Source: Pseudomonadota bacterium (GTDB lineage Bacteria > Pseudomonadota > Alphaproteobacteria > Rhodobacterales > Rhodobacteraceae). Taken from it: a stretch of 64,000 nt of DNA. The notes beneath the pieces were generated by a model. That model was not told the DNA's origin. It saw only the letters and a list, made by a program, of their open reading frames with translations, and searched no databases. The first letter of the stretch is position 1. The number at the start of each line of letters is the position of its first letter. The translations under genes were made by a program, and so were the position numbers. The stretch is taken from the NCBI GenBank assembly GCA_963205235.1, contig CAUJIP010000026.1, forward strand, positions 8,042-72,041, read 5' to 3'. Below are positions 19,294 to 63,193 of this stretch, in pieces.

Positions 19294-20715
19294 ATGAACA
19301 TGCAACCGAAACATGCAGGTCTTGGCGCGCTGGCAGCGATGCTTGTGGCAGGCCTGCCAGCCTTGGCCCAGGACGGGCCGATCCTGAACCCGACAGCCGA
19401 GCAGATGGCAGCCATGGTCGACAAGGGCGACACGACCTGGATGCTGGTCTCATCCGCACTTGTGCTGATGATGGCCATTCCGGCGCTGGCCTTGTTCTAC
19501 GGCGGCCTGGTCCGCACCAAGAACATGCTCAGCCTGCTGATGCAGGTCTTCATGATCGTAGGCATCGGAGCGGTGATGTGGGTGGCGGTCGGCTACAGCC
19601 TCTCCTTCACCTCTGGCTCGCCCTACATCGGCGGCCTGTCCAAGGCGATGCTGGCGGGCGTCGGCACCGGCACCTATGCCGCGACATTTTCCAACAACGT
19701 CTACCTGCCGGAATATGCCTTCGTCATCTTCCAGATGACCTTCGCCTGCATCACCCCGGCCCTGATCATCGGGGCCTTCGCCGAGCGTATCAAGTTCTGG
19801 CCGCTGATGCTGTTCTGTGTCCTATGGACGCTTCTGGCCTATTATCCCATGGCCCACATGGTCTGGTTCTGGGCTGGACCGGACTTCCTGTCGGTACCCG
19901 AATTCGCCAATGACAAAGGCCTGCTTTGGGGCTGGGGTGCGCTTGACTTTGCGGGCGGCACCGTCGTCCACATCAACGCCGGGATCGCGGGTCTGGTCGG
20001 CTGTATCGTCGTGGGCAAACGGATCGGCTTCAACAAGGAACCGATGCCGCCGCACAGCCTGACGATGACGATGATCGGTGCTTCGCTGCTGTGGGTCGGC
20101 TGGTTCGGCTTCAACGCCGGGTCCAACCTGGAAGCCAACGGCCTTGCGGCGCTTGCCTTCCTGAACACCTTCGTCGCCACCGCCGCCGCGACCCTTTCCT
20201 GGGTTCTGGTCGAACAGCTGCGCCATGGTCGCCCGTCACTTCTGGGGGCAGTCACCGGGGCCGTCGCCGGTCTGGTCGCCGTCACCCCCGCTGCAGGCTT
20301 TGCTTCCCCCGGAGGGGCGCTTGTCCTGGGTCTGATCGTCTCGCCGGTCTGCTTTGTCTTCGTCTCGACGGTGAAAAAGCGGTTCGGCTATGACGACAGC
20401 CTGGATGTCTTTGGCGTACACGGCGTCGGCGGGATCGTTGGAGCCATCGGGACCGGCGTGCTGGCTGATCCTTCGCTTGGCGGGCAGGGCTGGTATGACT
20501 ACACCGTCTTCCCGGCGGTTCCGGGGGTCTATGACATGACCGCCCAGGTCATCATCCAGATCCAGGCCGTTGCCGTGACCGTGGCCTGGACCGGCGTCGT
20601 GTCGCTGCTTCTTTTCTCGCTGATCAAGCTGGTCTTCGGTCTGCGCCCATCCAACGACGACGAACGTCAGGGCCTTGACCAGACCGCCCACGGCGAAAGC
20701 GCCTACAACATGTGA
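19294..20715 (+). CDS. amtB: Ammonium transporter
   Basis: Start trimmed to MNMQPKHAG. Multi-TM protein with LDFAGGTVVHINAGIAGL and DVFGVHGVGGIVG motifs. Confidence 0.9.
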   Translation: MNMQPKHAGLGALAAMLVAGLPALAQDGPILNPTAEQMAAMVDKGDTTWMLVSSALVLMMAIPALALFYGGLVRTKNMLSLLMQVFMIVGIGAVMWVAVGYSLSFTSGSPYIGGLSKAMLAGVGTGTYAATFSNNVYLPEYAFVIFQMTFACITPALIIGAFAERIKFWPLMLFCVLWTLLAYYPMAHMVWFWAGPDFLSVPEFANDKGLLWGWGALDFAGGTVVHINAGIAGLVGCIVVGKRIGFNKEPMPPHSLTMTMIGASLLWVGWFGFNAGSNLEANGLAALAFLNTFVATAAATLSWVLVEQLRHGRPSLLGAVTGAVAGLVAVTPAAGFASPGGALVLGLIVSPVCFVFVSTVKKRFGYDDSLDVFGVHGVGGIVGAIGTGVLADPSLGGQGWYDYTVFPAVPGVYDMTAQVIIQIQAVAVTVAWTGVVSLLLFSLIKLVFGLRPSNDDERQGLDQTAHGESAYNM

Positions 20716-39504: not shown

Positions 39505-41586
39505 TCAATCCCCGGCAACCGTCCGAACCTCAAGCTGCAGGATCGCCGGTCCTGGGCCATTGTCGTCGCCTTCCGGCGTCAGGCCGATTGCCCCGCGCGT
39601 GGTTTCGCCAAAGCCAGCCTCGGTCAGTGCATCGCCAAAGCCTGAACCGCCGATGTTCCGGGTCGGGTCCACTGCGTCCTGCGCCAGATAGCTCAGGTCT
39701 TCGACCGGGCTTTGCTTTTTGGCAGGCGTCATGATCACAAGCATCCGTTCTTGGCCCAGTACGTCGTCCGATATCTTGAACAAGCCTTGTTCCAGCGTGT
39801 CGCCCGGCTGCAACCGACCCGAGAACCAGTGGCTGATCGACCAGTCCGCGCCAACATAGAGGACGTTCACATCGACCGGCCCGTCCGTGTTGTTGCGCGC
39901 CAGCACATGCACCTCGTCATCGGTCACCAGCGTCGGCACCGGGACCAAGGGCAGTTCGCGCAGATCCTCGTCGGGTCCGGCACGGGTTTGCATCGCGACC
40001 TCGACATCCAGACCCTCTGATCCGACGGCCGCGCCCAGTTTCAGAAGGTTCTGGGCCCGGGCGATCTTGGTCAATGTGTCGGACAGGGCCTCGGCCAGTT
40101 CGGTTGCATCCTTGTCTTCAGTCGAGACGGAAGGCGTGAAACCACCCTCATCGGCCAGACCGGTGGAAGGCAGGATCCAGATCGCATCGGGGCGGTCGCT
40201 GTCGGGCAGGACGGCAAGATGCAGGTCGGCGTCCTGATCGGATTTGACAAAGTTCAGGCGGGGGCCGGTAAGTTCGGTCAGCTCGTCCAGGGCCGCGACC
40301 AGCGCCTCGGCCGGGGCAGACCCTTCGGGGGGCAGCGCAACCGTCAGGGTAAAATCAAGCGACTCGTCCAGTTTGCGCAGGGTTACGCCCTTCGGCAATT
40401 CGGCGGGCAGTGTCTTGCCATCCTTGTCAATTGGTTGCCCGGTGGACGAGAAGGTGTCGACCGAAACCAGTTCCACATAGCCAAGTGCGGCGGAATCCTC
40501 ATCGGCAGCCGTTGCCATGACGGCCAGTACAGCGCCTTCGGACAGACCGTGCAACGTACCTGCCGGAATCACCAGACCGGCGTCCCCGGATTCGGCCTGC
40601 CATTGCCGCACGCGGTCGCCGCCTTCGCCAGAAAAGACCACCTGATCCAGATCGCCTTCGAAAAGCGGAGTCGACCGGGCAAGATTCTTGACCGAATAGC
40701 GGCGCAGGACTTCCTGCCCGATCTGGCCATAGGTGGCACCAGGGTATTCGGCCAGAACCTCCATCAGAGTATAGGTGAAAACACCTTGCGGCTTGCGGTC
40801 AGGTTCGCCGCGCGGCAGTTTTTTCTCGGGCGTGACTTCGTTGGTCTGGGCAGCGAAGAAGGCGACGAAACTGCCGTCCTCGGTGCCCCCGTCAAAGGGT
40901 GCGTCAGCCTGGGCTTCCTGCTCTCCGATCGACCGGCTGGCGACTTCTTCGATCATCTCGGGGTCGATCCCCAAGGCCTCGGGCGGAAGCTGGCGCATCA
41001 GGACTTCGTCATCGGCCAGTTCGACCGAACGGGTGGCGGTGCCGGAATGGCAGCTGTCGAAGACCGCCCAGACATTGGCCCCCTTGCCCCGCAGATCGTC
41101 TATCATCTGACCGATTTCGTCATCGACCAGGCTGTTTTCCACCGTACCTGCCTTGTCCGACCAGGGCCCGATGTCGCGGGGCAGGAAAATCTCGTCCAGC
41201 CCGTCAAGCTCGGTCGAAGGGTCCAGCGCGGGGGATTGCGAGCCGTGGCCCGAAAAATGCAGATAGACAAAGTCGCCGGGCTGCACTTCGGCGGTCAGGT
41301 CGGAAAAGGCGGTGCGGATCGCGGCAAGGGTCGGGTCCTTGGACCCTTCCACCCCGTCGGACAGCACGGTGACATTTTCGGGCAGGAAGGGCACCGGGGC
41401 TTCGGTGGTCAGGTATTGCGCGACAAGGGCGACGTCATTGCCGGGGCCTTTCAGCCACCACCGCTGTTCAAGGCTGGGATAGTCATTGACCCCGATCAGC
41501 AGCGCATAGTTTTCCCGCGCCAGCGCAGGCAGCGCGACCATCGCGGGCAGCACGAGTATTGCCGAAGAGAGAAGTTTGCGCAGCAT
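39505..41586 (-). CDS. Exported caspase-fold (peptidase C14) protein with a ~400-aa C-terminal extension
   Basis: Signal peptide MLRKLLSSAILVLPAMVALPALA. YALLIGVNDY, catalytic His in YLHFSGHGSQ and catalytic Cys in VFDSCHSGT. 693 aa. Confidence 0.8.
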   Translation of the reverse strand: MLRKLLSSAILVLPAMVALPALARENYALLIGVNDYPSLEQRWWLKGPGNDVALVAQYLTTEAPVPFLPENVTVLSDGVEGSKDPTLAAIRTAFSDLTAEVQPGDFVYLHFSGHGSQSPALDPSTELDGLDEIFLPRDIGPWSDKAGTVENSLVDDEIGQMIDDLRGKGANVWAVFDSCHSGTATRSVELADDEVLMRQLPPEALGIDPEMIEEVASRSIGEQEAQADAPFDGGTEDGSFVAFFAAQTNEVTPEKKLPRGEPDRKPQGVFTYTLMEVLAEYPGATYGQIGQEVLRRYSVKNLARSTPLFEGDLDQVVFSGEGGDRVRQWQAESGDAGLVIPAGTLHGLSEGAVLAVMATAADEDSAALGYVELVSVDTFSSTGQPIDKDGKTLPAELPKGVTLRKLDESLDFTLTVALPPEGSAPAEALVAALDELTELTGPRLNFVKSDQDADLHLAVLPDSDRPDAIWILPSTGLADEGGFTPSVSTEDKDATELAEALSDTLTKIARAQNLLKLGAAVGSEGLDVEVAMQTRAGPDEDLRELPLVPVPTLVTDDEVHVLARNNTDGPVDVNVLYVGADWSISHWFSGRLQPGDTLEQGLFKISDDVLGQERMLVIMTPAKKQSPVEDLSYLAQDAVDPTRNIGGSGFGDALTEAGFGETTRGAIGLTPEGDDNGPGPAILQLEVRTVAGD

Positions 41587-41605
41587 GGTCAGCCCCCCAC
41601 CACAG

Positions 41606-42229
41606 TCAGTTCGTCATCAGTGCATAGGACGCCGATACCGGGCCCTTGTTTTCGATCTTGAGCGTGAATGTCCCGGCCTCTGCCGGGGTCCAGCCGCAAT
41701 AAGCTATGAAGGAAATATCGGTGTCGGAACAAACCAGCCGGCCCGCGGCATCAAGCACCATCAGGTTGAGGTCGGTCGTGTCCTTTGCCTCGACATACAC
41801 TTCGGCATATTCGCCGGCCCGAAACTCGATCGGGGGATAGGTGTCTGCCCCGCCATTCGCCAACGAGCCGATATTGTAGACCGGGCCGGTGGCGACACCC
41901 TTGGTCGTTTCGTCCCTGGCGTCCGCGATCAGGCCAAGAAGCGCGGCGTCATCCCCTGCAAGGGTTTCTGCGCTGGCCAGCATCTCTTCCCAAGTCAGGG
42001 GTGCACCTTCACCCGCCGTGCCGTCAATGGCAGCGCGGTCAGTCACTTCGGGCGCGATTTCCTTGCGGATCCGGGCGGCAGACAGGATGAGAAGCGGGTC
42101 ACCCTGCGCCAGGCCCGTTGCGTAAAGCCGGGCCGAAAGTTCGGCCAGTTGCACCGGGGTACCGGGTTCGGCCATGGCCGGAAGGGCAAGGGCGACTAGA
42201 GTGGAAGCAAGAAGAAGGCAGCGCATCAT
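41606..42229 (-). CDS. Secreted hypothetical protein with a PPC-like (pre-peptidase C-terminal type) beta-sandwich tail
   Basis: Only the last 207 codons of track ORF 41606-44458 are used. Signal peptide MMRCLLLASTLVALALPAMA. Tail reads GEYAEVYVEAKDTTDLNLMVLDAAGRLVCSDTD...GTFTLKIENKGPVSASYALM. Lies 19 bp upstream of the caspase-like gene. Confidence 0.65.
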   Translation of the reverse strand: MMRCLLLASTLVALALPAMAEPGTPVQLAELSARLYATGLAQGDPLLILSAARIRKEIAPEVTDRAAIDGTAGEGAPLTWEEMLASAETLAGDDAALLGLIADARDETTKGVATGPVYNIGSLANGGADTYPPIEFRAGEYAEVYVEAKDTTDLNLMVLDAAGRLVCSDTDISFIAYCGWTPAEAGTFTLKIENKGPVSASYALMTN

Positions 42230-42298
42230 GATCCCGGAGTTGCGGCGATTGTCCTGAGCATGCTGTGCGGCTTCTTGCCTGTAAATGCTCGATTTCTT

Positions 42299-42317
42299 CA
42301 TGACGACCTTTGTCATG
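42299..42317. promoter_or_regulatory. Palindrome CATGAC-N7-GTCATG in the divergent promoter region
   Basis: catgacgacctttgtcatg lies between the 41606-42229 gene and the HtrA-like gene. No known regulator is assigned. Confidence 0.3.
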
Positions 42318-42376
42318 TGCCCTTGTTCCCCGGGCCTGTTAGCAAACCGGCAATGAGGCAGGAAAAGGAGACCGCA

Positions 42377-43705
42377 ATGCGGTTCAAGTCTGACAGGAAA
42401 GTTTGGCGCTGGCTTCCCCATGGCGAGGATGTGCTGGCGGCACTTCTGGTTCTTGTGCTTGCGCTGGTGGTCAGTTCGGCGACAGCGTCCCCCCTGGACA
42501 AGGCAATGGACAAAGTCCTGACCGTACGCAGCGCGGATGGCGAGGATCGGTTCCTGGGATCGGCCTTCATCTGGGCCGATGGCACGGTCGCGGTAACGAA
42601 TGCCCATGTCGTGGGCGAAGCGGAAGAGGTGCGGCTGATCAACCGGGATGGGGTCGAGGAAACCGCGCTGGTGATTGCAAGCGATCCGGTGCGCGATGTG
42701 GCGGTGATCTCTATCACCCCCGGTCGTGAGGGGCTTGTGCTGGCGGATGCGGCACCAGAGCTGGGCGATGAAGTCTTTGCGCTGGGGGCGCCATTGGGCG
42801 TGGAGTTCACCCTGACCGAAGGGCTGATTTCGGCCACCGAACGGCAGGTCGACATCACAGTGCCGCTGATGCTGTTGCAGCATGATGCAGCGGTGAATCC
42901 GGGGTCCTCGGGTGGCCCGCTGGTCGATGCAGACGGGCTGCTTCTGGGCATGAACAGCCAGATTGCCGATGGCAGCCGGATGTTCGTGGGGATTGCCTAT
43001 GCGATTTCCGCCGCAGATCTTGACCGGATCGTGACCGGGCTGATCGACGAAACCCTTGTGCCTTATCCGCACCTTGGCCTGTCTGCCCGCGCCGTTGACC
43101 TTAAGGTCGCCGATGCGCTGGGGGTTGAACCGGGCGGCATGCTGATCGACGCGGTCGCACCCAAGGGCCTTGCCGAGAATTCGGGCCTGTTGGCGGGCGA
43201 CATCATTACCGGTGTAGACGGGACCGCCTTGACCGAAGCCGGCGATCTTGCCTTTGCCTTCGAAGGTGCGCTGGAAACGGGCGAGGTAATGCTGGATATC
43301 CTGCGTCAACACGAAAGCGTTGAGGTCACGCTGGCTCTTGCCGCAGTTGAAGACGAAGGCGGTACTGTCCTGCGGCAGATTGGCGGGAACGCCGCCCCGG
43401 CCATGGTGCAATCCTACAGCCTTGCCGGGCTTGGGATCGTCCTGGATGAAAGCGGCACCGTCACCGATTTGACCATGAACTCCCCCGCCGCGGATGCAGG
43501 TCTTGCCTTGGGCGACAAGATCCTGACCGTGAACGGCGACGAGGTCGACCTTGCGACCTTTGAACTGACCGGACCGGCTCTGATTCTGGTCCAGGCTCGG
43601 GGTGGGGTCACGCGACACCTGCGGCTTGATCCCTGGACCCCAAGTGACGGAGTTCGGCCGGTTGGCGGGGCGAATGTGCTTGACCCGGCCGTGGTCGTGT
43701 TCTGA
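42377..43705 (+). CDS. S1C (HtrA/DegP-like) serine protease with two PDZ-like regions
   Basis: Start trimmed to MRFKSDRK, preceded by ggaaaaggag. TM anchor ALLVLVLALVV. Triad contexts TNAHVV, RDVAVI and NPGSSGGPL. Confidence 0.85.
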   Translation: MRFKSDRKVWRWLPHGEDVLAALLVLVLALVVSSATASPLDKAMDKVLTVRSADGEDRFLGSAFIWADGTVAVTNAHVVGEAEEVRLINRDGVEETALVIASDPVRDVAVISITPGREGLVLADAAPELGDEVFALGAPLGVEFTLTEGLISATERQVDITVPLMLLQHDAAVNPGSSGGPLVDADGLLLGMNSQIADGSRMFVGIAYAISAADLDRIVTGLIDETLVPYPHLGLSARAVDLKVADALGVEPGGMLIDAVAPKGLAENSGLLAGDIITGVDGTALTEAGDLAFAFEGALETGEVMLDILRQHESVEVTLALAAVEDEGGTVLRQIGGNAAPAMVQSYSLAGLGIVLDESGTVTDLTMNSPAADAGLALGDKILTVNGDEVDLATFELTGPALILVQARGGVTRHLRLDPWTPSDGVRPVGGANVLDPAVVVF

Positions 43706-43714
43706 ACTGGGGCC

Positions 43715-44413
43715 ATGGGAATGGACGAACGCATCCTGATCGTCGAGGACGACGCCGAGACCGCCGCCGCCGTGCGGGCGGAGGTCGAGGCCTTGGGTTG
43801 CTCGGTCGACCATTGTGACACGCTGGAGGCGGGCGTGGCGGCGGCTATAAGCACCCCCTACAAGGTCATCGTGCTGGACCGCATGCTTCCCGGCGGCGAC
43901 GGGGTCGAGGCGATGGCGCGGATCAGGGCGGGCGGGTCGACCGCGTTGATCCTGATCCTGTCCGCCTTGGGCCGCGCCGCGAACCGGGTCGAGGGGCTGG
44001 AAAAGGGGGCGGATGACTATCTGCCCAAGCCCTTTGAACCGGATGAGTTGCGCGCCCGTTTGCGCGCGCTGTTGCGCCGGGGCACGATGCAGGTTCTGGA
44101 CAATGACCTGCTGGCCTTTGGCGATCTGGAGATTCGGATGAAGGCGCGGACAGTGCATGTCAAACGCGCCCATGTCGCCGTCAGCCCCAAGGAGTTTGAG
44201 CTGATCACCTATTTCGCCCGCAACGCCGGGCAAGTGGTCACGCGGATGCAGCTTTTGGAAAACGTCTGGAACCTGCATTTTGACCCCGGCACCAATGTCG
44301 TCGACGTCCATGTCGGGCGACTGCGCCGCAAGTTGGAGGATGCAGGGTCCCCCGCGATCCAGACCGCCCGGGGCGAGGGGTATATCTTCTTTCCCAAGGT
44401 CACGGCGGGGTGA
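43715..44413 (+). CDS. OmpR/PhoB-family response regulator
   Basis: Receiver domain ILIVEDD...VIVLDRMLPGGDG...KPF, then a winged-helix domain (LSPKEFELITYF...RGEGY). Confidence 0.9.
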   Translation: MGMDERILIVEDDAETAAAVRAEVEALGCSVDHCDTLEAGVAAAISTPYKVIVLDRMLPGGDGVEAMARIRAGGSTALILILSALGRAANRVEGLEKGADDYLPKPFEPDELRARLRALLRRGTMQVLDNDLLAFGDLEIRMKARTVHVKRAHVAVSPKEFELITYFARNAGQVVTRMQLLENVWNLHFDPGTNVVDVHVGRLRRKLEDAGSPAIQTARGEGYIFFPKVTAG

Positions 44414-45786
44414 CACTGGCACGGCCCCCGATCCGACTGTTCCTCGCCGCACGGGCAACGCTGCGGCTGGCGGCTCTGATGGCGCTGGCGGTCACGCTTC
44501 TGTCGCTTGGCGCGATGATGCTGCAGTACCGGCTGGTCGAGACCCGGATGATGGAGGCGCAACAGGCACTTCTGACCGCTGATCTTGGCGGCTTTGCCGC
44601 CCTTTATGAACAGCGCCGGATCATCGCCTTACGGCAGGCCATCGAATACCGCGCGGCGGCGGCAACCGGGGATGAGATGCTCTTGTTGCAGGACCGCAAC
44701 GGCACGTTGCTGGCGGGAACCCTGACCGAATGGCCTGTCGGCCTTGCCCCGGTCGGCGCAGATTTCGCTGCAGCGGATGCGTTCGAATTCACGAGCCTGG
44801 GCAAGCGCTGGCTGGCGGTCGCGCGGGAATTGCCGGGGGGGTTTCCGCTTTTGGTCGCACGGTCCTTGCAGCCGGTCGACGATACGCTGGCGGCGCTGCG
44901 CCGGGGCATTCTTGGGCTTCTGGCGGCCTGCCTTGGTGCCGGGGGGCTTTTCGGCTGGCTTTCGGCGCGTTCGGTGATGGGCCGGATCGGGCGGATCAAC
45001 GACCTTGCCGACCGTGTGGCCGAGGGCGAACTGGATGCACGTCTTCCGGGTGAACGGTCTGCCGACGAATTCGGCCTGCTGGAGACCCACGTCCATGCCA
45101 TGCTGGACCGGATCCAGAACCTGAACCGGGCGACGCACAGGCTGTCGGACACCATCGCGCATGAACTTCGTACCCCCCTGAACCGGATGCTGCAGAAGCT
45201 GTCAAAGATCGAGGGGCAGGAGGCGCTGACCAGCGAGTTGAAGGCCGAGATGCGGCAGGCGATCCGCATGTTCGATTCGCTTCTGGATATCAGCCGGGCC
45301 GAAGCCGATCAGGGAACCGGCGGCGGGTTGGTGCCGGTGGACCTGTCCGCCGTCGCCTCCGAAGTCTGGGAGCTTTACGAGCCCTTGGCCGAGGACAAGG
45401 GGCTGATTGCGGAAGCCCGCGTTACGCCGGGACTAAGGGTCCTTGGCGACCACAACCTGATTGCGCAGGTCCTGTCGAACCTGATCGACAACGCGATCAA
45501 GTATTGCTCGGCGGGGGATCGGGTGATGCTGGACCTGTCCGAACAGGGCGACCGTCACCTCATGCGGGTTGCCGATACCGGGCCGGGCCTGCCCGAAGAC
45601 CTGAAAGCAGAAGCCTTCGAACGCTTTACCCGGGCCGAGCGGGACCGGGGGATCAAGGGCCATGGTCTGGGGCTGGCGCTGGTGCGCGCCATCGCCGCAC
45701 GGCACGGGGCACGACTCGCGATGCCTGCGACGGAAGGCGGTTTTGCGCTTGAAATCCATTGGCCAAGGCTGCAGCACTCGGACTGA
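44410..45786 (+). CDS. Sensor histidine kinase (2 TM, HAMP, HisKA, HATPase_c)
   Basis: GTGA overlap with the regulator gene. H-box SDTIAHELRTPL, N-box NLIDNAIKY, G-boxes DTGPGL and GHGLGL. Confidence 0.9.
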   Translation: MTLARPPIRLFLAARATLRLAALMALAVTLLSLGAMMLQYRLVETRMMEAQQALLTADLGGFAALYEQRRIIALRQAIEYRAAAATGDEMLLLQDRNGTLLAGTLTEWPVGLAPVGADFAAADAFEFTSLGKRWLAVARELPGGFPLLVARSLQPVDDTLAALRRGILGLLAACLGAGGLFGWLSARSVMGRIGRINDLADRVAEGELDARLPGERSADEFGLLETHVHAMLDRIQNLNRATHRLSDTIAHELRTPLNRMLQKLSKIEGQEALTSELKAEMRQAIRMFDSLLDISRAEADQGTGGGLVPVDLSAVASEVWELYEPLAEDKGLIAEARVTPGLRVLGDHNLIAQVLSNLIDNAIKYCSAGDRVMLDLSEQGDRHLMRVADTGPGLPEDLKAEAFERFTRAERDRGIKGHGLGLALVRAIAARHGARLAMPATEGGFALEIHWPRLQHSD

Positions 45787-45803
45787 CCCAACCCGGAACC
45801 TCC

Positions 45804-47246
45804 ATGCGCCGTGCCCTTCTTCCCCTGTTCCTGCTATTCGGCTGCGCGCCGTGGAACCAGCCGCAGAACGAACCTTTGCAGGGAGAGAACGCCAGCCTTG
45901 TCGAACCGCTGATCGCCGGGGATGGCGAGGTTTACATCGGGCTGGCCTTTTCTGGTGGCGGGATGCGCGCCACGGCTTTTGCCTATGGCATGCTGGAAGA
46001 ATTGCGCGCTACGGGTGTGTACAGTGGCACGCCGAACGGGCTGCTTGATAATGTGCGGCTGGTTTCGGGCGTGTCCGGCGGCTCGGTCATGGCGGCACAG
46101 TTCGGGCTTTACGGGGCGGACGGGCTGCCGGGCTTTCGCGAAAGCTATCTGCTTGCCAATGCCGAAACCTATATGGCGACCTCGGCGCTGAATCCTCTGA
46201 CGCTGGCCAAGGGGCTGGCGGGTGGGATCAACGGTCGCGATACCTTTGGCCGCTATCTGGACGAGGTTCTGTTCCACGGTGCGACCTTCGGCGACCTGCG
46301 CAAACGCTCGCACGTCATGACCTGGATCAACGCCACCGACATGGCAAACAACACTCCGTTCCTGTTTTCGCCGGAAACCTTCGATGCGCTTTGTTCTGAC
46401 CTGTCAAGAGTCCGCCTGTCCGAAGCCGTGGCGGCCTCGGCTGCCTATCCGCTGGTCTTTACCCCAATCGTGCTGAAGGCCCATCAGGGCGCTTGCGACT
46501 ATCGTGAGCCTGACTGGCTAACCGCCGCCCGCTACAACCCCGAAGCCACCGCCGCGATGCGCGCCCATGCCCGCGCGCTGGAAAGCTATACCAACCCCGA
46601 AGAGGTGAAATTCGTCAAACTGCTGGATGGCGGGATCACTGACAATTTCGGCACGACAGGACTGGCCGTCGAACGCGCCCGCGCTCAGGTGCCCTATGCC
46701 CCTCTGACCGCCGAAGAGGCGGTGAAGCTGAAACGGATGCTGTTCCTTGTCGCCAATGCGGGCGTCGACAATGACTATGACTGGACCGGGCGAGTTTCCG
46801 GCCCGGGCGGGGTGAATCTGGCGGTGTCGATCGCCTCATCCGCGATGTCCGCCGCCTCGCGCTCGGGCTATGATTCGATGCGGGGTGAATTGCGGTTGTG
46901 GGAAGCCGAGCTGATTGAATGGCGTTGTACCCTGCCCCTGTCCGAAGTGCGCCGCTTGCGTGGATCGACAGATGGCTGGGACTGCAAGGACGTGAAGCTT
47001 TTCGTCGGCGAGGTCAGTTTCGCGAACCTTCCAACCGAGATGCGGGATAGGGTGGACACGGTTCCGACCAGGCTGAAGCTGCCGGAAGCGCAGGTCGATC
47101 TGGTGATCGAGGCCAGCCGTCTCGCCACCCGGATGACGCCGGAATACAACGGCTTTCTCGCCTCGCTGACCGGGAACGATGTGGATCAGCGGATCGAGGA
47201 TGGCATTGCCGCTGGCGGCTATCGCGTGGTTCCTTTGGGGAACTGA
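45804..47246 (+). CDS. Patatin-like phospholipase, predicted lipoprotein
   Basis: Start trimmed to MRRALLPLFLLFGCAPW (lipobox-like). Oxyanion motif SGGGMRA, nucleophile GVSGGS, Asp motif LDGGITDNFG. Confidence 0.85.
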   Translation: MRRALLPLFLLFGCAPWNQPQNEPLQGENASLVEPLIAGDGEVYIGLAFSGGGMRATAFAYGMLEELRATGVYSGTPNGLLDNVRLVSGVSGGSVMAAQFGLYGADGLPGFRESYLLANAETYMATSALNPLTLAKGLAGGINGRDTFGRYLDEVLFHGATFGDLRKRSHVMTWINATDMANNTPFLFSPETFDALCSDLSRVRLSEAVAASAAYPLVFTPIVLKAHQGACDYREPDWLTAARYNPEATAAMRAHARALESYTNPEEVKFVKLLDGGITDNFGTTGLAVERARAQVPYAPLTAEEAVKLKRMLFLVANAGVDNDYDWTGRVSGPGGVNLAVSIASSAMSAASRSGYDSMRGELRLWEAELIEWRCTLPLSEVRRLRGSTDGWDCKDVKLFVGEVSFANLPTEMRDRVDTVPTRLKLPEAQVDLVIEASRLATRMTPEYNGFLASLTGNDVDQRIEDGIAAGGYRVVPLGN

Positions 47247-47369
47247 TCGCACCCCGGACCAAGGTGCGGTCGGTCATCACCAATCCGTCACGCAATCTTT
47301 ATGCCGTCGCGCAGTGCTTGGCACTGGCGGGTGGGGGCGCATGCGATAGAATGGACGCAGGATAAGGAC

Positions 47370-47897
47370 ATGATGGCCCGCAAACCGTTGCCACAACCCA
47401 GTGCCGAACATCGTCGCCGCGGTTTTGAACCCGCGTTCGGGCTGATGAAGGACCCGCTGCGTCTGGCGGGCGAAGCGCGTGGCTTTGCCGTGACCCGGCT
47501 TTTGACCCATTGGGCCGAGGTTGCGGGGCCAGAGCTTGCCGCCAAGACCCGACCGGTCAAGGTCGGCTTTGGGCGCGAAGGTCTGGGCGCGACGTTGACG
47601 CTGCTGGTCAAGGCCAGCGAGGCGCCCATTGTGCAGATGCAACTGCCGCAGTTGAAGGATCGGGTGAATGCTGTCTACGGCTATGCCGCTGTGGCCCATA
47701 TCCACCTGACCCAGACAGCGGCCAGTGGCTTTGCCGAAGGGCAGGCCGATTTTGCCGCTGCGCCGAAAGCCCCCCCAAAGCCCGACCCGGCGCAACAACT
47801 CCGCGCCAAGGCACAAGCGGAAGGGGTTGCCGATCCCGGCTTGCGGTCGGCGCTTGAACAGCTTGCCCAAAACATCTTAACTCGCCCCCGAATGTGA
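47370..47897 (+). CDS. DUF721 (DciA-like) domain protein
   Basis: Start trimmed to MMARKPLPQ. Contains LTHWAEVAGPELAAKTRPVKV...LTLLVKASEAPIVQMQLPQLKDRVN. Confidence 0.7.
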   Translation: MMARKPLPQPSAEHRRRGFEPAFGLMKDPLRLAGEARGFAVTRLLTHWAEVAGPELAAKTRPVKVGFGREGLGATLTLLVKASEAPIVQMQLPQLKDRVNAVYGYAAVAHIHLTQTAASGFAEGQADFAAAPKAPPKPDPAQQLRAKAQAEGVADPGLRSALEQLAQNILTRPRM

Positions 47898-47921: not shown

Positions 47922-48548
47922 ATGCTGAAACTGAACCGCCGGGCCATGATTGCCCTTGCCGCTGCCGCCTCGGCCGCGATGACCCCTGCTTTCGCCGAGG
48001 ATGCGCCCGCAGCCGAAGTGCCGCCTCCTGGTGATTTTTCCATCGGCGATGCGAATGCCCCGGTAAAGATTGTCGAATATGCCAGCTTTACTTGCCCGCA
48101 TTGTGCGCATTTCCATGAAACGGTCTGGGCTGACCTGAAGAAGAACTACATCGACACCGGAAAGGTGCATTTCACCCTGCGCGAAGTGTATTTCGACCGC
48201 GTTGGCCTGTGGGCTGCGATGGTTGCGCGCTGCGGTGGCGAAATGCGGTATTTCGGCATCCACGACATGCTGTTTTCGAAGCAGTCGGAATGGCTTGCCT
48301 CGCAAGATCCGACCGTGATCGTCGATGCGCTGAAAGCAATCGGCCTTTCGGCAGGGATCGATGCCGCCGCGCTGGACACCTGCCTTAACGATCAGGCGAT
48401 GGCCGAGGCGCTGGTCAAGCAGTTCGAGACCAACATGGCAGCCGATGGTGTCGAAGGCACGCCGACGATTTTCGTCAATGGCGAAAAGATCGGCAATCCT
48501 TCCTATGAGGACCTGTCGGCAGCCATCGACGCGGCATTGGCTCAGTAG
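47922..48548 (+). CDS. DsbA-family thiol:disulfide oxidoreductase
   Basis: Signal peptide, then active site FTCPHC. 208 aa. Confidence 0.85.
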   Translation: MLKLNRRAMIALAAAASAAMTPAFAEDAPAAEVPPPGDFSIGDANAPVKIVEYASFTCPHCAHFHETVWADLKKNYIDTGKVHFTLREVYFDRVGLWAAMVARCGGEMRYFGIHDMLFSKQSEWLASQDPTVIVDALKAIGLSAGIDAAALDTCLNDQAMAEALVKQFETNMAADGVEGTPTIFVNGEKIGNPSYEDLSAAIDAALAQ

Positions 48549-61282: not shown

Positions 61283-63193
61283 ATGCGCAAAGACAAGGGA
61301 GCGATGGCCCGGGCAAAGGTTGCAGAGCGGCGGTTCGCGCCGATCCTGGCGACCGGGGCACTGATCCTTGGTCTGGCCGCACTGGCCCTGCCCGCCCGAA
61401 GCGAAACAGTCATCACCGCGCACGGCATTTCCACCTTCGGTGATCTTCAGCTTTCCGCCGACTTCACCCACTTGCCCTATGTGAAACCCGATGCCCCCAA
61501 AGGCGGCGAGCTGTCGCAATGGGCGCAGGGCACCTTTGATTCGCTCAACCCCTTTTCGATCAAGGGCATTGCCGCTGTCGGATCAAGCACCATGCTGGAA
61601 ACGATCCTGACTGGTACGCTGGACGAAATCGGCGCCAGCTACTGCCTGCTTTGCAGCACGATGGAATTCCCCGAGGACCGGTCCTGGGTGATCTTCAACC
61701 TGCGCCCCGAAGTCACCTTTTCGGACGGCACCCCCCTGACCGCCGACGACGTGCTGTTTTCCTATGAAACCTTCCGCGACAAGGGCCTGACCGATTTTCG
61801 CACGATCTTCAGCCAGCAGGTCGCCGGGGCCGAGGTTCTGGATGCGCACCGGATCAAGTTCACCTTTGTCCCCGGCGAGCCGACGCGCGATCTGCCCGAA
61901 CTGGTGGGTGGCCTGCCGATCTTTTCCAAGGCCCACTACCTGGCCAATGGGCTGAACATGGAAGAGATTTCGACCACGCCCTATCTTGGCTCTGGCCCCT
62001 ATGTCTTTGACAAGATGGACATCGGTCGCAGCGTCACCTACCGGCGCAACCCCGACTACTGGGGCGCGACACTGCCGATCAACGTCGGGCAGAACAACTT
62101 TGACACCCTGCGCTATGAATATTTTGCCGATGGCAATTCCGCGTTCGAGGCGTTCAAGGCGGGCGTCTACCGGTTCCGGACCGAAACCTCGTCCAAGTCC
62201 TGGGCCGAACAGTATGACTTTCCCGCCATTGCCGCCGGTCATGTGAAGAAGGACACGCTGCCAAGCGGTGCCAAGGCCAGCGGTCAGGGCTATATCTTCA
62301 ACCTGCGCCGCCCGATGCTGCAAGACCCGAAGGTTCGGCAGGCAATCGGACTGATGTTCAACTTTGAATGGTCGAACAAGACGCTGTTCTACGGGCTTTA
62401 CACCCGGATCAACTCGGTCTGGGAAAACAGCTGGCTTGCCGCCGAAGGCACGCCCTCACCCGAAGAGGTCGCGGTCCTGCAGCCCCTGGTCGATCAGGGC
62501 CTGCTGCCCGCCACGGTCCTGACCGACCCCGCCGTCATGGCCCCGACAAGTGGCGAGCGCCAGCTTGACCGCAAGAACCTTAAAGCCGCCAGCGCCCTTT
62601 TGGACGAGGCGGGCTGGATGGCCGGGGATGACGGTATCCGGCGCAACGATAAGGGCGAGACGCTGACCCTCTCGATCCTGAACGACAATCCGCAGTTTGA
62701 CCGGGTGATCACGCCCTTTGTCGAAAACCTGATTGCCCTTGGCATCGACGCCAAGCTTGAGAACGTCGATACCGCCCAGTACGAACTGCGCACGCGCGAC
62801 CCCGCTTATGATTTCGATCTGATCGTCGGTTCGGCGCGGTCCAGCTATTTCTCGGGCTCCGAGTTGAAGCAGTTCTACGGGTCTGAAACCGCCGATGTCT
62901 CGGCCTTCAACGTCGCGGGGCTGAAAAGCAAGGCCGTCGACCAGTTGATCGAGGTGGTGATGGCCGCCAAGACCAAGGACGAACTGACCGTCGCCACCAA
63001 GGCGCTTGACCGTGTGCTGCGGGCCGAGGGGTTCTGGATTCCGCAATGGTACAAGGCGGAACATTGGGTCGCCTATTATGACATGTACAGTCATCCCGAC
63101 ACGATCCCGGACTATGGCCTTGGACATGAAAGCCTCTGGTGGTACGACGCGGCCAAGGCCGATGCGCTCAAGGCTGCTGGGGTCCTTCAATAA
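61283..63193 (+). CDS. yejA: Family 5 extracellular solute-binding protein of a YejABEF-type peptide / microcin C ABC importer
   Basis: ATG preceded by aggagggagg. Signal peptide. HGISTFGDLQ...YVKPDAPKGGEL is typical of YejA-like SBPs. The symbol is by analogy. Confidence 0.8.
   Translation: MRKDKGAMARAKVAERRFAPILATGALILGLAALALPARSETVITAHGISTFGDLQLSADFTHLPYVKPDAPKGGELSQWAQGTFDSLNPFSIKGIAAVGSSTMLETILTGTLDEIGASYCLLCSTMEFPEDRSWVIFNLRPEVTFSDGTPLTADDVLFSYETFRDKGLTDFRTIFSQQVAGAEVLDAHRIKFTFVPGEPTRDLPELVGGLPIFSKAHYLANGLNMEEISTTPYLGSGPYVFDKMDIGRSVTYRRNPDYWGATLPINVGQNNFDTLRYEYFADGNSAFEAFKAGVYRFRTETSSKSWAEQYDFPAIAAGHVKKDTLPSGAKASGQGYIFNLRRPMLQDPKVRQAIGLMFNFEWSNKTLFYGLYTRINSVWENSWLAAEGTPSPEEVAVLQPLVDQGLLPATVLTDPAVMAPTSGERQLDRKNLKAASALLDEAGWMAGDDGIRRNDKGETLTLSILNDNPQFDRVITPFVENLIALGIDAKLENVDTAQYELRTRDPAYDFDLIVGSARSSYFSGSELKQFYGSETADVSAFNVAGLKSKAVDQLIEVVMAAKTKDELTVATKALDRVLRAEGFWIPQWYKAEHWVAYYDMYSHPDTIPDYGLGHESLWWYDAAKADALKAAGVLQ

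Follow-up and report, generated by a model that had tools for sequence, protein, structure and literature searches.

Sensor pairs that are genetically linked to an HtrA-type protease are known from secretion and envelope stress responses, as for CssRS with HtrA/HtrB in Bacillus and MprAB with PepD in Mycobacterium. In Escherichia coli, CusR is reported to activate both divergent operons of the cus system from the CusR box (PMC10920338), and in the Cpx system the kinase CpxA is inhibited by CpxP, which DegP degrades (PMC6737893); in E. coli K-12, cpxP is divergent from cpxRA. Here, we describe a locus that shares features with each of these arrangements, found in a 64,000-nucleotide stretch of DNA from a Rhodobacteraceae assembly (GCA_963205235.1, contig CAUJIP010000026.1, positions 8,042 to 72,041; hereafter the window). 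Its six genes encode a metacaspase-like protease, a small partner protein, an HtrA-like protease, a response regulator, a sensor histidine kinase and a patatin-like phospholipase, arranged as two divergent operons. Literature searches for this gene combination found no published description; novelty lies in this combination, in the partner family and in the operator, and the individual parts and the logic of regulation belong to known kinds.

As in Cpx, the gene for a small exported protein diverges from the two-component operon, and an HtrA-family protease belongs to the circuit. Unlike Cpx, the partner carries a PPC-type beta-sandwich, htrA lies inside the regulator operon, and the metacaspase and patatin have no Cpx counterpart. 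The genetic link between a sensor pair and an HtrA-type protease is shared with CssRS-HtrA/HtrB and MprAB-PepD as a likeness of arrangement, and the metacaspase, PPC-domain partner and patatin set the locus apart from both. With cus it shares a two-component operon that diverges from a target operon across approximately 150 bp with a single dyad in the gap, and the overall kinase architecture of CusS. In contrast to cus, the putative targets are proteases and a lipase rather than an efflux pump, the sensor domain is unrelated to that of CusS, and full-size loci carry copies of the operator at further operons. The preliminary description of this DNA had likened the HtrA and two-component genes to a common envelope-stress pairing; the HtrA linkage holds, but the regulator and operator are CusRS-like and not simply generic.

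A published survey described exported metacaspases and multi-copy metacaspase operons in Alphaproteobacteria with no function assigned (PMC3501461). Bacterial metacaspase function is a long-standing open question, and the locus gives a testable handle on it through a dedicated sensor pair, a short mutable operator and a dedicated partner with a candidate cleavage site, in hosts that include the culturable genera Tabrizicola, Thalassovita, Vannielia and Pseudosulfitobacter.

A conserved and mobile gene set

The locus is a conserved, horizontally mobile unit of Rhodobacterales with variants in Hyphomicrobiales. A scan with the partner protein, taking one genome per species, yielded 80 loci. Order and spacing recur in approximately 80 species of the Paracoccaceae, and 79/80 loci are labelled either as unclassified (alpha)proteobacterial bins or as Rhodobacterales genera, among them Tabrizicola, Pseudorhodobacter, Cypionkella, Gemmobacter, Thioclava, Thalassovita, Frigidibacter, Fuscovulum, Neotabrizicola and Fertoeibacter. 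In essentially all 80 loci, as far as the contigs extend, the five-gene core (caspase, partner, htrA, regulator and kinase genes) is unchanged in order and orientation, and this arrangement holds down to 43-55% protein identity; patatin is found in most of the loci. Intergenic spacing is mostly -1 to 17 nt between partner and caspase, -4 nt between regulator and kinase and 15-35 nt between kinase and patatin, with a divergent gap of approximately 150 bp in most of 69 loci.

Clustering of the DNA on the far side of the caspase gene gives 13 unrelated groups, which places the set in at least 13 flanking contexts. Genes flanking the locus in the window are mostly not conserved with it, the sole recurrent one being an FAD-linked oxidase in Tabrizicola-like loci. 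A complete copy adjoins repB/parAB on an 82-kb plasmid of Pseudosulfitobacter pseudonitzschiae, the locus is present in 46 plasmid records of Pseudosulfitobacter, and the chromosome of Vannielia litorea carries a further copy. Rearranged forms were also found. An unassigned scaffold (L081) has the same six families in a different order, with patatin, C14 and CHAT protease genes beyond the kinase-regulator-HtrA genes, and the partner, HtrA, regulator, kinase and C14 genes are retained on a Bauldia (Hyphomicrobiales) contig (L090), where C14 lies with TPR and CHAT genes beyond the kinase-regulator-HtrA genes. In another variant (L091), partner-C14-CHAT genes diverge from HtrA and regulator genes. 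In every variant the partner gene is divergent from the htrA-regulator-kinase genes.

Gene-neighbourhood comparison, which the preliminary description had suggested as a check, finds the six-gene set co-localised in Rhodobacterales, with variants in Hyphomicrobiales. That description had also named two junctions at which the linkage could come apart. The divergent junction at 42230-42376 holds in essentially every locus with enough sequence, and is kept even in Hyphomicrobiales variants with a relocated caspase gene. The kinase-patatin junction at 45787-45803 is lost in only 7 loci, in which a second caspase gene directly follows the kinase gene. Two loci depart from the pattern: L049 is without htrA and the regulator gene and its kinase gene is reduced to a fragment, and L046 has approximately 1.7 kb between htrA and the partner gene, with an operator copy approximately 1.65 kb upstream of the latter. 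One Tabrizicola-like copy (L028, JBAOIR010000036.1; 70-91% identity to the six proteins of the window) is labelled as a Microthrixaceae (Actinobacteria) bin, probably through a binning error.

The copy in the window is a reduced version of a larger locus. In 50/57 loci with enough flank, genes for a second C14 protein, which shares approximately 30% identity with the first caspase, and for an S1A trypsin of 350 aa follow the patatin gene on the same strand, or follow the kinase gene if patatin is absent, as in 7 otherwise complete loci. One or two convergent partner-family paralogues come next in at least 20 of the full loci. The window has neither the second metacaspase and trypsin genes nor any extra partner paralogue, a short form that it has in common with seven other loci. 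The six-gene unit first described is conserved but incomplete, since the full locus adds a metacaspase, an S1A trypsin, partner paralogues and sometimes CHAT proteases. Additional genes in the plasmid copy encode a 908-aa protein and two CHAT proteases, one of them directly preceded by the gene for a partner paralogue. On plasmid NZ_CP086837.1 (L084/L086), the 908-aa protein and a 478-aa protein, both hypothetical, each adjoin protease genes; the 478-aa protein, encoded directly downstream of a CHAT gene, has no Pfam match. Just 3' of the patatin stop in the window (47247-47300, especially 47262-47290), the sequence cGGACcAAggtgcggtcGGTCAT aligns loosely and weakly with the second-caspase operator of the closest relative, L001. 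This weak match may be the scar of a deletion that removed the second caspase, trypsin and extra partner genes.

The six genes, their motifs, gaps and overlaps are as the preliminary description had given them, judged by the open reading frame (ORF) map, Pfam and orthologue alignments (Table 1). NCBI-called proteins are identical to the window gene models for HtrA and patatin, and Pfam matches above the gathering score were obtained for Peptidase_C14, Trypsin_2 with PDZ, Response_reg with Trans_reg_C, HAMP with HisKA and HATPase_c, and Patatin. The profile search suggested earlier therefore matched C14, Trypsin_2/PDZ and Patatin above threshold, and gave no PPC or other Pfam match for the partner. 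An exact-sequence look-up of the window caspase matched no contig. A 950-aa minus-strand frame (41606-44458), antisense to htrA and the regulator gene and running into the partner gene, was rejected as a high-G+C artefact; the true partner start is at 42229.

Table 1. Features of the locus, numbered by position in the window
Feature	Position	Strand	Description
Caspase gene	39505-41586	-	693 aa; metacaspase-like peptidase C14, predicted to be exported (ORF map and Pfam)
Partner gene	41606-42229	-	207 aa; predicted to be exported; 19 bp upstream of caspase gene
Divergent control region	42230-42376		147 bp; between the partner-caspase operon and the htrA-regulator-kinase-patatin operon
Promoter-like element of partner-caspase operon	42257-42285	-	TTTACA, 17 nt, CATGCT; starts 13 nt downstream of dyad
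Operator-like dyad	42299-42317		CATGACGACCTTTGTCATG; minus strand reads ATGACAA-AGGTC-GTCAT; CusR-box-like
HtrA/DegP-like S1C serine protease gene	42377-43705	+	442 aa; putative N-terminal membrane anchor or signal sequence; two PDZ domains
OmpR/PhoB-family response regulator gene	43715-44413	+	CusR/CopR-like; 9-bp gap after htrA
Sensor histidine kinase gene	44410-45786	+	GTG start; 4-nt overlap with regulator gene
Patatin-like phospholipase gene	45804-47246	+	480 aa; predicted lipoprotein signal; 17-bp gap after kinase gene

The operator-like dyad and the two-component system

An alignment of 67 divergent gaps identified a conserved element, CACATGACAAAGnCCGTCAT, which is a dyad of the form ATGAC-N7-GTCAT amid diverged DNA. 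The window has a single such site, and a regular expression for the element matches within 250 bp upstream of the partner gene in 77/80 loci. It is also found upstream of the second caspase gene in 46/51 loci, with a matching -35/-10-like layout, and in the DNA that separates the extra partner paralogues. The unassigned scaffold has it in each of its two divergent gaps, and it is present in the plasmid copy (at the second caspase gene and before the partner-CHAT pair) and in the Bauldia variant. Over 1.3 Mb of loci, 202 occurrences were observed against 3.2 expected, a ratio that overstates independence as the loci are related by descent. Since one operator is common to them, co-regulation of the operons is supported. 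In closely related loci, matches that recur within the coding sequence of the FAD oxidase and where the partner and caspase genes meet were set aside as inherited coding sequence, and two window dyads, 20535-20552 (CATGACCGCCCAGGTCAT) and 63077-63094 (TATGACATGTACAGTCAT), which have ATGAC-N7-GTCAT-like arms without the ACAA core, were not counted as operators.

For comparison, the CusR box was read directly from E. coli K-12 as AAAATGACAATTTTGTCATTTTT, within the cusR-cusC gap of 157 bp. The ATGACAA half-site is identical between the two elements; the locus dyad differs in a spacer that is one base longer and in its right half (GTCAT compared with TTGTCAT). Because the dyad carries this half-site, the regulator shares 38% identity with E. 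coli CusR along its full length, including the recognition-helix region, and it is the sole DNA-binding protein encoded in the locus, we infer that the dyad is its binding site. The best NCBIfam model for the regulator is cztR_silR_copR (1.2e-49, below cut-off); its score against TIGR01387 (CusR/CopR subfamily) is 168.9 bits, below the 279.2 cut-off, and the PhoB model scores nearly equally. The kinase has two transmembrane segments around a periplasmic domain of approximately 120 aa, followed by HAMP, HisKA and HATPase domains. Its best NCBIfam model is cztS_silS_copS (2.1e-46, below cut-off), and it scores 158.9 bits against TIGR01386 (CusS/CopS), below the 292.6 cut-off. The kinase was rejected as a CusS orthologue, as its periplasmic sensor region does not align with that of E. 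coli CusS.

Downstream of the dyad, the intergenic alignment shows conservation between genera of the TTTACA hexamer of the promoter-like element and of a following CAT/TAT-n-n-T hexamer. Relatives show a comparable arrangement upstream of the second caspase gene, consisting of the dyad, approximately 13 nt, CTTGyy, 17 nt and TATCyT. In L061, L044 and other loci, just ~7-12 nt separate this -10-like TATCyT from the annotated start codon (ATG) of the second caspase, and the mRNA may be leaderless or have a very short leader.

The hydrolases and the partner protein

The caspase consists of a predicted signal peptide, a p20/p10-like catalytic region (approximately residues 25-320) and a C-terminal region of approximately 370 aa. 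It matches PF00656 with 66.1 bits (cut-off 21.4; 4.8e-18), and its best matches in a profile search of PDB sequences are the metacaspases AtMC4, Yca1 and TbMCA2 (E 2e-19 to 1e-11). Foldseek also returned metacaspases for the low-confidence caspase model. The dyad residues His114 (HFSGHG) and Cys179 (FDSCHSG) are invariant in 65/65 orthologues and occur in distant homologues as well. Two further residues are invariant in the 65 orthologues, D51, which aligns with the metacaspase ND motif, and D177, which precedes the catalytic Cys; we take these to be the metacaspase S1-pocket positions. Because Asp residues are invariant there, Arg/Lys specificity is predicted. The His-Cys dyad, p20 fold and two putative pocket Asp residues are shared with AtMC4, Yca1, T. 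brucei MCA2 and prokaryotic orthocaspases; unlike those metacaspases, the locus caspase has a predicted Sec signal, the long C-terminal region, and a dedicated partner gene and two-component system. The C-terminal region has no Pfam match even at E<=5, and a partner-like PPC domain within it was rejected (hhalign probability 3%).

For HtrA, Pfam assigns Trypsin_2 together with PDZ_6, PDZ_2 and PDZ matches that cover two PDZ stretches. The His/Asp/Ser triad (NAHVV, DVAV, GSSGGP) is invariant in 69/69 orthologues. This is the fastest-evolving protein of the set (43-87% identity). Its score against the NCBIfam Do family TIGR02037 is 217.4 bits, below the 416.2 cut-off, and by these sequence criteria it is HtrA-like, not a curated DegP, DegQ or DegS equivalent. 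The patatin matches PF01734 with 54.2 bits (cut-off 27.7; 2.8e-14), and its GGGxR, GxSxG and DGG motifs (GGGMRA, GVSGG, DGGITDN) are invariant in 54/54 orthologues. It carries the lipobox LFGC at residues 11-14 with Ala at position +2, and the lipobox pattern recurs in 51/54 orthologues. The catalytic motifs that had been quoted for HtrA, patatin and caspase are thus all present in the window and invariant across orthologues. Because the catalytic residues are invariant and the caspase has the putative metacaspase-type pocket Asp residues, the enzymes look active. N-terminal hydrophobic signal-like segments are found in 65/65 caspases and 76/77 partners, and from such sequence patterns the caspase, partner, HtrA and patatin are all predicted to be exported.

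The partner has a predicted signal peptide, a four-helix N-terminal domain, a hinge at K110-G111 and a C-terminal PPC-type beta-sandwich (AlphaFold2; predicted local distance difference test score, pLDDT, 91). The sandwich bears two conserved Cys residues and the protein terminates in an invariant Y-x-L-x-T-N. No match was found in Pfam or NCBIfam. In Foldseek, the last ~95 residues matched the beta-jelly roll of Tk-SP as well as the PPC domains of ColG/ColH collagenase and B. anthracis (E 1e-7 to 1e-4), and a distant Sinorhizobium meliloti homologue has a weak PPC match (PF04151; 21.1 bits, below the 25.9 cut-off). The fold of this segment is thus like that of PPC and collagenase collagen-binding domains, although the partner sandwich is fused to a helical domain, is free-standing instead of forming the tail of a protease precursor, and falls below the Pfam threshold.

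In an alignment of 121 sequences (120 family representatives and the window partner), position 110 is R or K in 114/121 and position 111 is G in 111/121. This [KR]-G hinge is a plausible cleavage site for a metacaspase of the Arg/Lys type. Partner-type genes adjoin genes of clan-CD proteases beyond the locus as well, namely a CHAT gene on the Pseudosulfitobacter plasmid and a caspase gene on a S. meliloti plasmid, where two partner-like genes flank the caspase gene and HtrA, the two-component system and patatin are absent. The family comprises 1,245 clusters at 50% identity, and a genomic context is now given to this large, unannotated family of putatively exported proteins. A metagenome scan with one distant family member returned a single 1.2-kb contig.

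Proposed mechanism and competing explanations

With slightly better than even confidence, we regard the locus as a self-regulated regulon of envelope-exported hydrolases, whose favoured physiological purpose would be an inducible envelope stress response or envelope remodelling. The directly supported elements (gene content, conservation, mobility, the operator and its CusR-box resemblance, catalytic residues and partner fold) could fit together as follows. The kinase would sense a periplasmic cue through a sensor domain unrelated to that of CusS and, being CusS-like in its remainder, would phosphorylate the CusR-like regulator. The regulator would bind the single dyad ATGACAA-N5-GTCAT in the 147-bp gap, and the copies at further operons in full-size loci, and would activate both its own htrA-regulator-kinase-patatin operon and the partner-metacaspase operon, as CusR does at cusRS/cusCFBA. 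Partner and metacaspase would be exported via Sec, HtrA would be anchored or exported, and the patatin would be a lipoprotein, probably of the outer membrane; together, the exported hydrolases would act on envelope proteins and lipids. Because the partner is constantly divergent from the htrA-regulator-kinase genes, as cpxP is from cpxRA, a CpxP-like role is proposed for it, most likely as a periplasmic modulator or bait whose hinge would be cut by the metacaspase. If true, CusR-type regulatory logic would extend from metal efflux to envelope proteolysis and lipolysis.

Several points weigh against this interpretation. The kinase periplasmic domain matches no Pfam family and does not align with CusS, only residues 202-452 of the kinase being alignable, and a strict sigma-70 scan detected the promoter of neither operon. 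Binding of the regulator to the operator is argued from resemblance and co-occurrence, and the role of the partner from gene position and one conserved hinge. Homology between partner and CpxP was rejected (hhalign probability 0.2%), and the partner has no sequence homology to the C-terminal region of the caspase. Translational coupling of partner and caspase in Rhodobacterales would be just as compatible with a partner that acts as inhibitor, chaperone or substrate. The caspase model was built from a shallow alignment (pLDDT 57), and its lower Foldseek matches were not trusted. The loci share descent, and their counts overstate the number of independent events. Finally, the window copy could be decaying, although its six ORFs and catalytic residues are intact.

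A more specific extracytoplasmic caspase circuit can be drawn from the same elements and is, as a whole, unlikely. Here, periplasmic metacaspases or CHAT proteases would cut dedicated partner baits or pro-effectors at the [KR]-G hinge and the kinase would read the product or the loss of partner, giving a self-amplifying envelope cascade under the CusR-type operator.

Alternatively, the proteases and lipase could be offensive or nutritional exo-enzymes that are released to attack algal or bacterial neighbours or to digest external protein and lipid, with the two-component system sensing prey or host. Release might occur in outer-membrane vesicles, by surface exposure or through a secretion system encoded elsewhere. 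Such a role would suit the 46 plasmid records from diatom-associated Pseudosulfitobacter isolates, the variety of degradative enzymes, with S1A trypsin and CHAT among them in the fuller versions, the fast evolution of HtrA and partner, and the PPC domains, a typical feature of secreted proteases. The published survey raised the idea that exported metacaspases have extracellular roles in fratricide (PMC3501461). We consider it improbable nonetheless, as the conserved genes of the locus copies examined included no secretion system or transporter, the signals present lead only to the periplasm or outer membrane with HtrA N-terminally anchored, and the core of partner, two-component system and HtrA resembles an internal sensing circuit.

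It is quite unlikely that the locus encodes a self-destructive, abortive response to phage or stress, in which the two-component system would induce metacaspase(s) and patatin to dismantle the cell's own envelope. Caspase-like proteases and patatins do recur as effectors in bacterial conflict systems. With gasdermin-protease pairs and CBASS CapV the locus shares enzyme families, CHAT proteases in some copies, and an accessory, mobile character, with a variable protease complement. Comparison with a defence catalogue (PADLOC), proposed in the preliminary description, yielded generic domain-level matches to a caspase model and a phospholipase effector model, but no system-level match for the gene set. 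Known systems of this kind are cytoplasmic and have NTPase or nucleotide sensors, whereas all locus hydrolases carry export signals and no NTPase, cyclase, gasdermin or nucleotide sensor is present. Slow transcriptional control through an OmpR-type regulator would also be unusual for abortive infection, and HtrA is usually protective.

A copper, silver or oxidant response of the CusRS/HprRS type, with envelope proteolysis as output and a metal or reactive chlorine or oxygen species as signal, appears highly improbable. The heavy-metal class supplies the best NCBIfam models for kinase and regulator, and the operator half-site is that of the CusR box. Against this, both proteins score far below the family cut-offs, the periplasmic domain differs from that of CusS, and no metal-handling or methionine sulfoxide reductase genes were seen in the locus copies examined.

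Chance or merely inherited adjacency of a housekeeping HtrA and two-component system, an unrelated caspase pair and an unrelated patatin, which the preliminary description had set against a regulated envelope module, retains next to no credence: HtrA beside a two-component system is common by itself and many loci come from closely related Tabrizicola-like genomes with the same FAD-oxidase neighbour, but the set persists in at least 13 flanking contexts, on a plasmid, and rearranged in the Bauldia contig and the unassigned scaffold, with the partner always divergent, one operator before several operons, and the flanking genes of the window not conserved with it. The regulated envelope module stands in part.

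Beyond the patatin gene, the next ORF in the window (47301-47897, plus strand) is DciA-like (PF05258, 4.3e-12), a helicase-loader family. This ORF and the DsbA-like ORF that follows it do not travel with the locus in other genomes. The DsbA-like ORF (47922-48548) has a signal-like N-terminus, as judged by eye.

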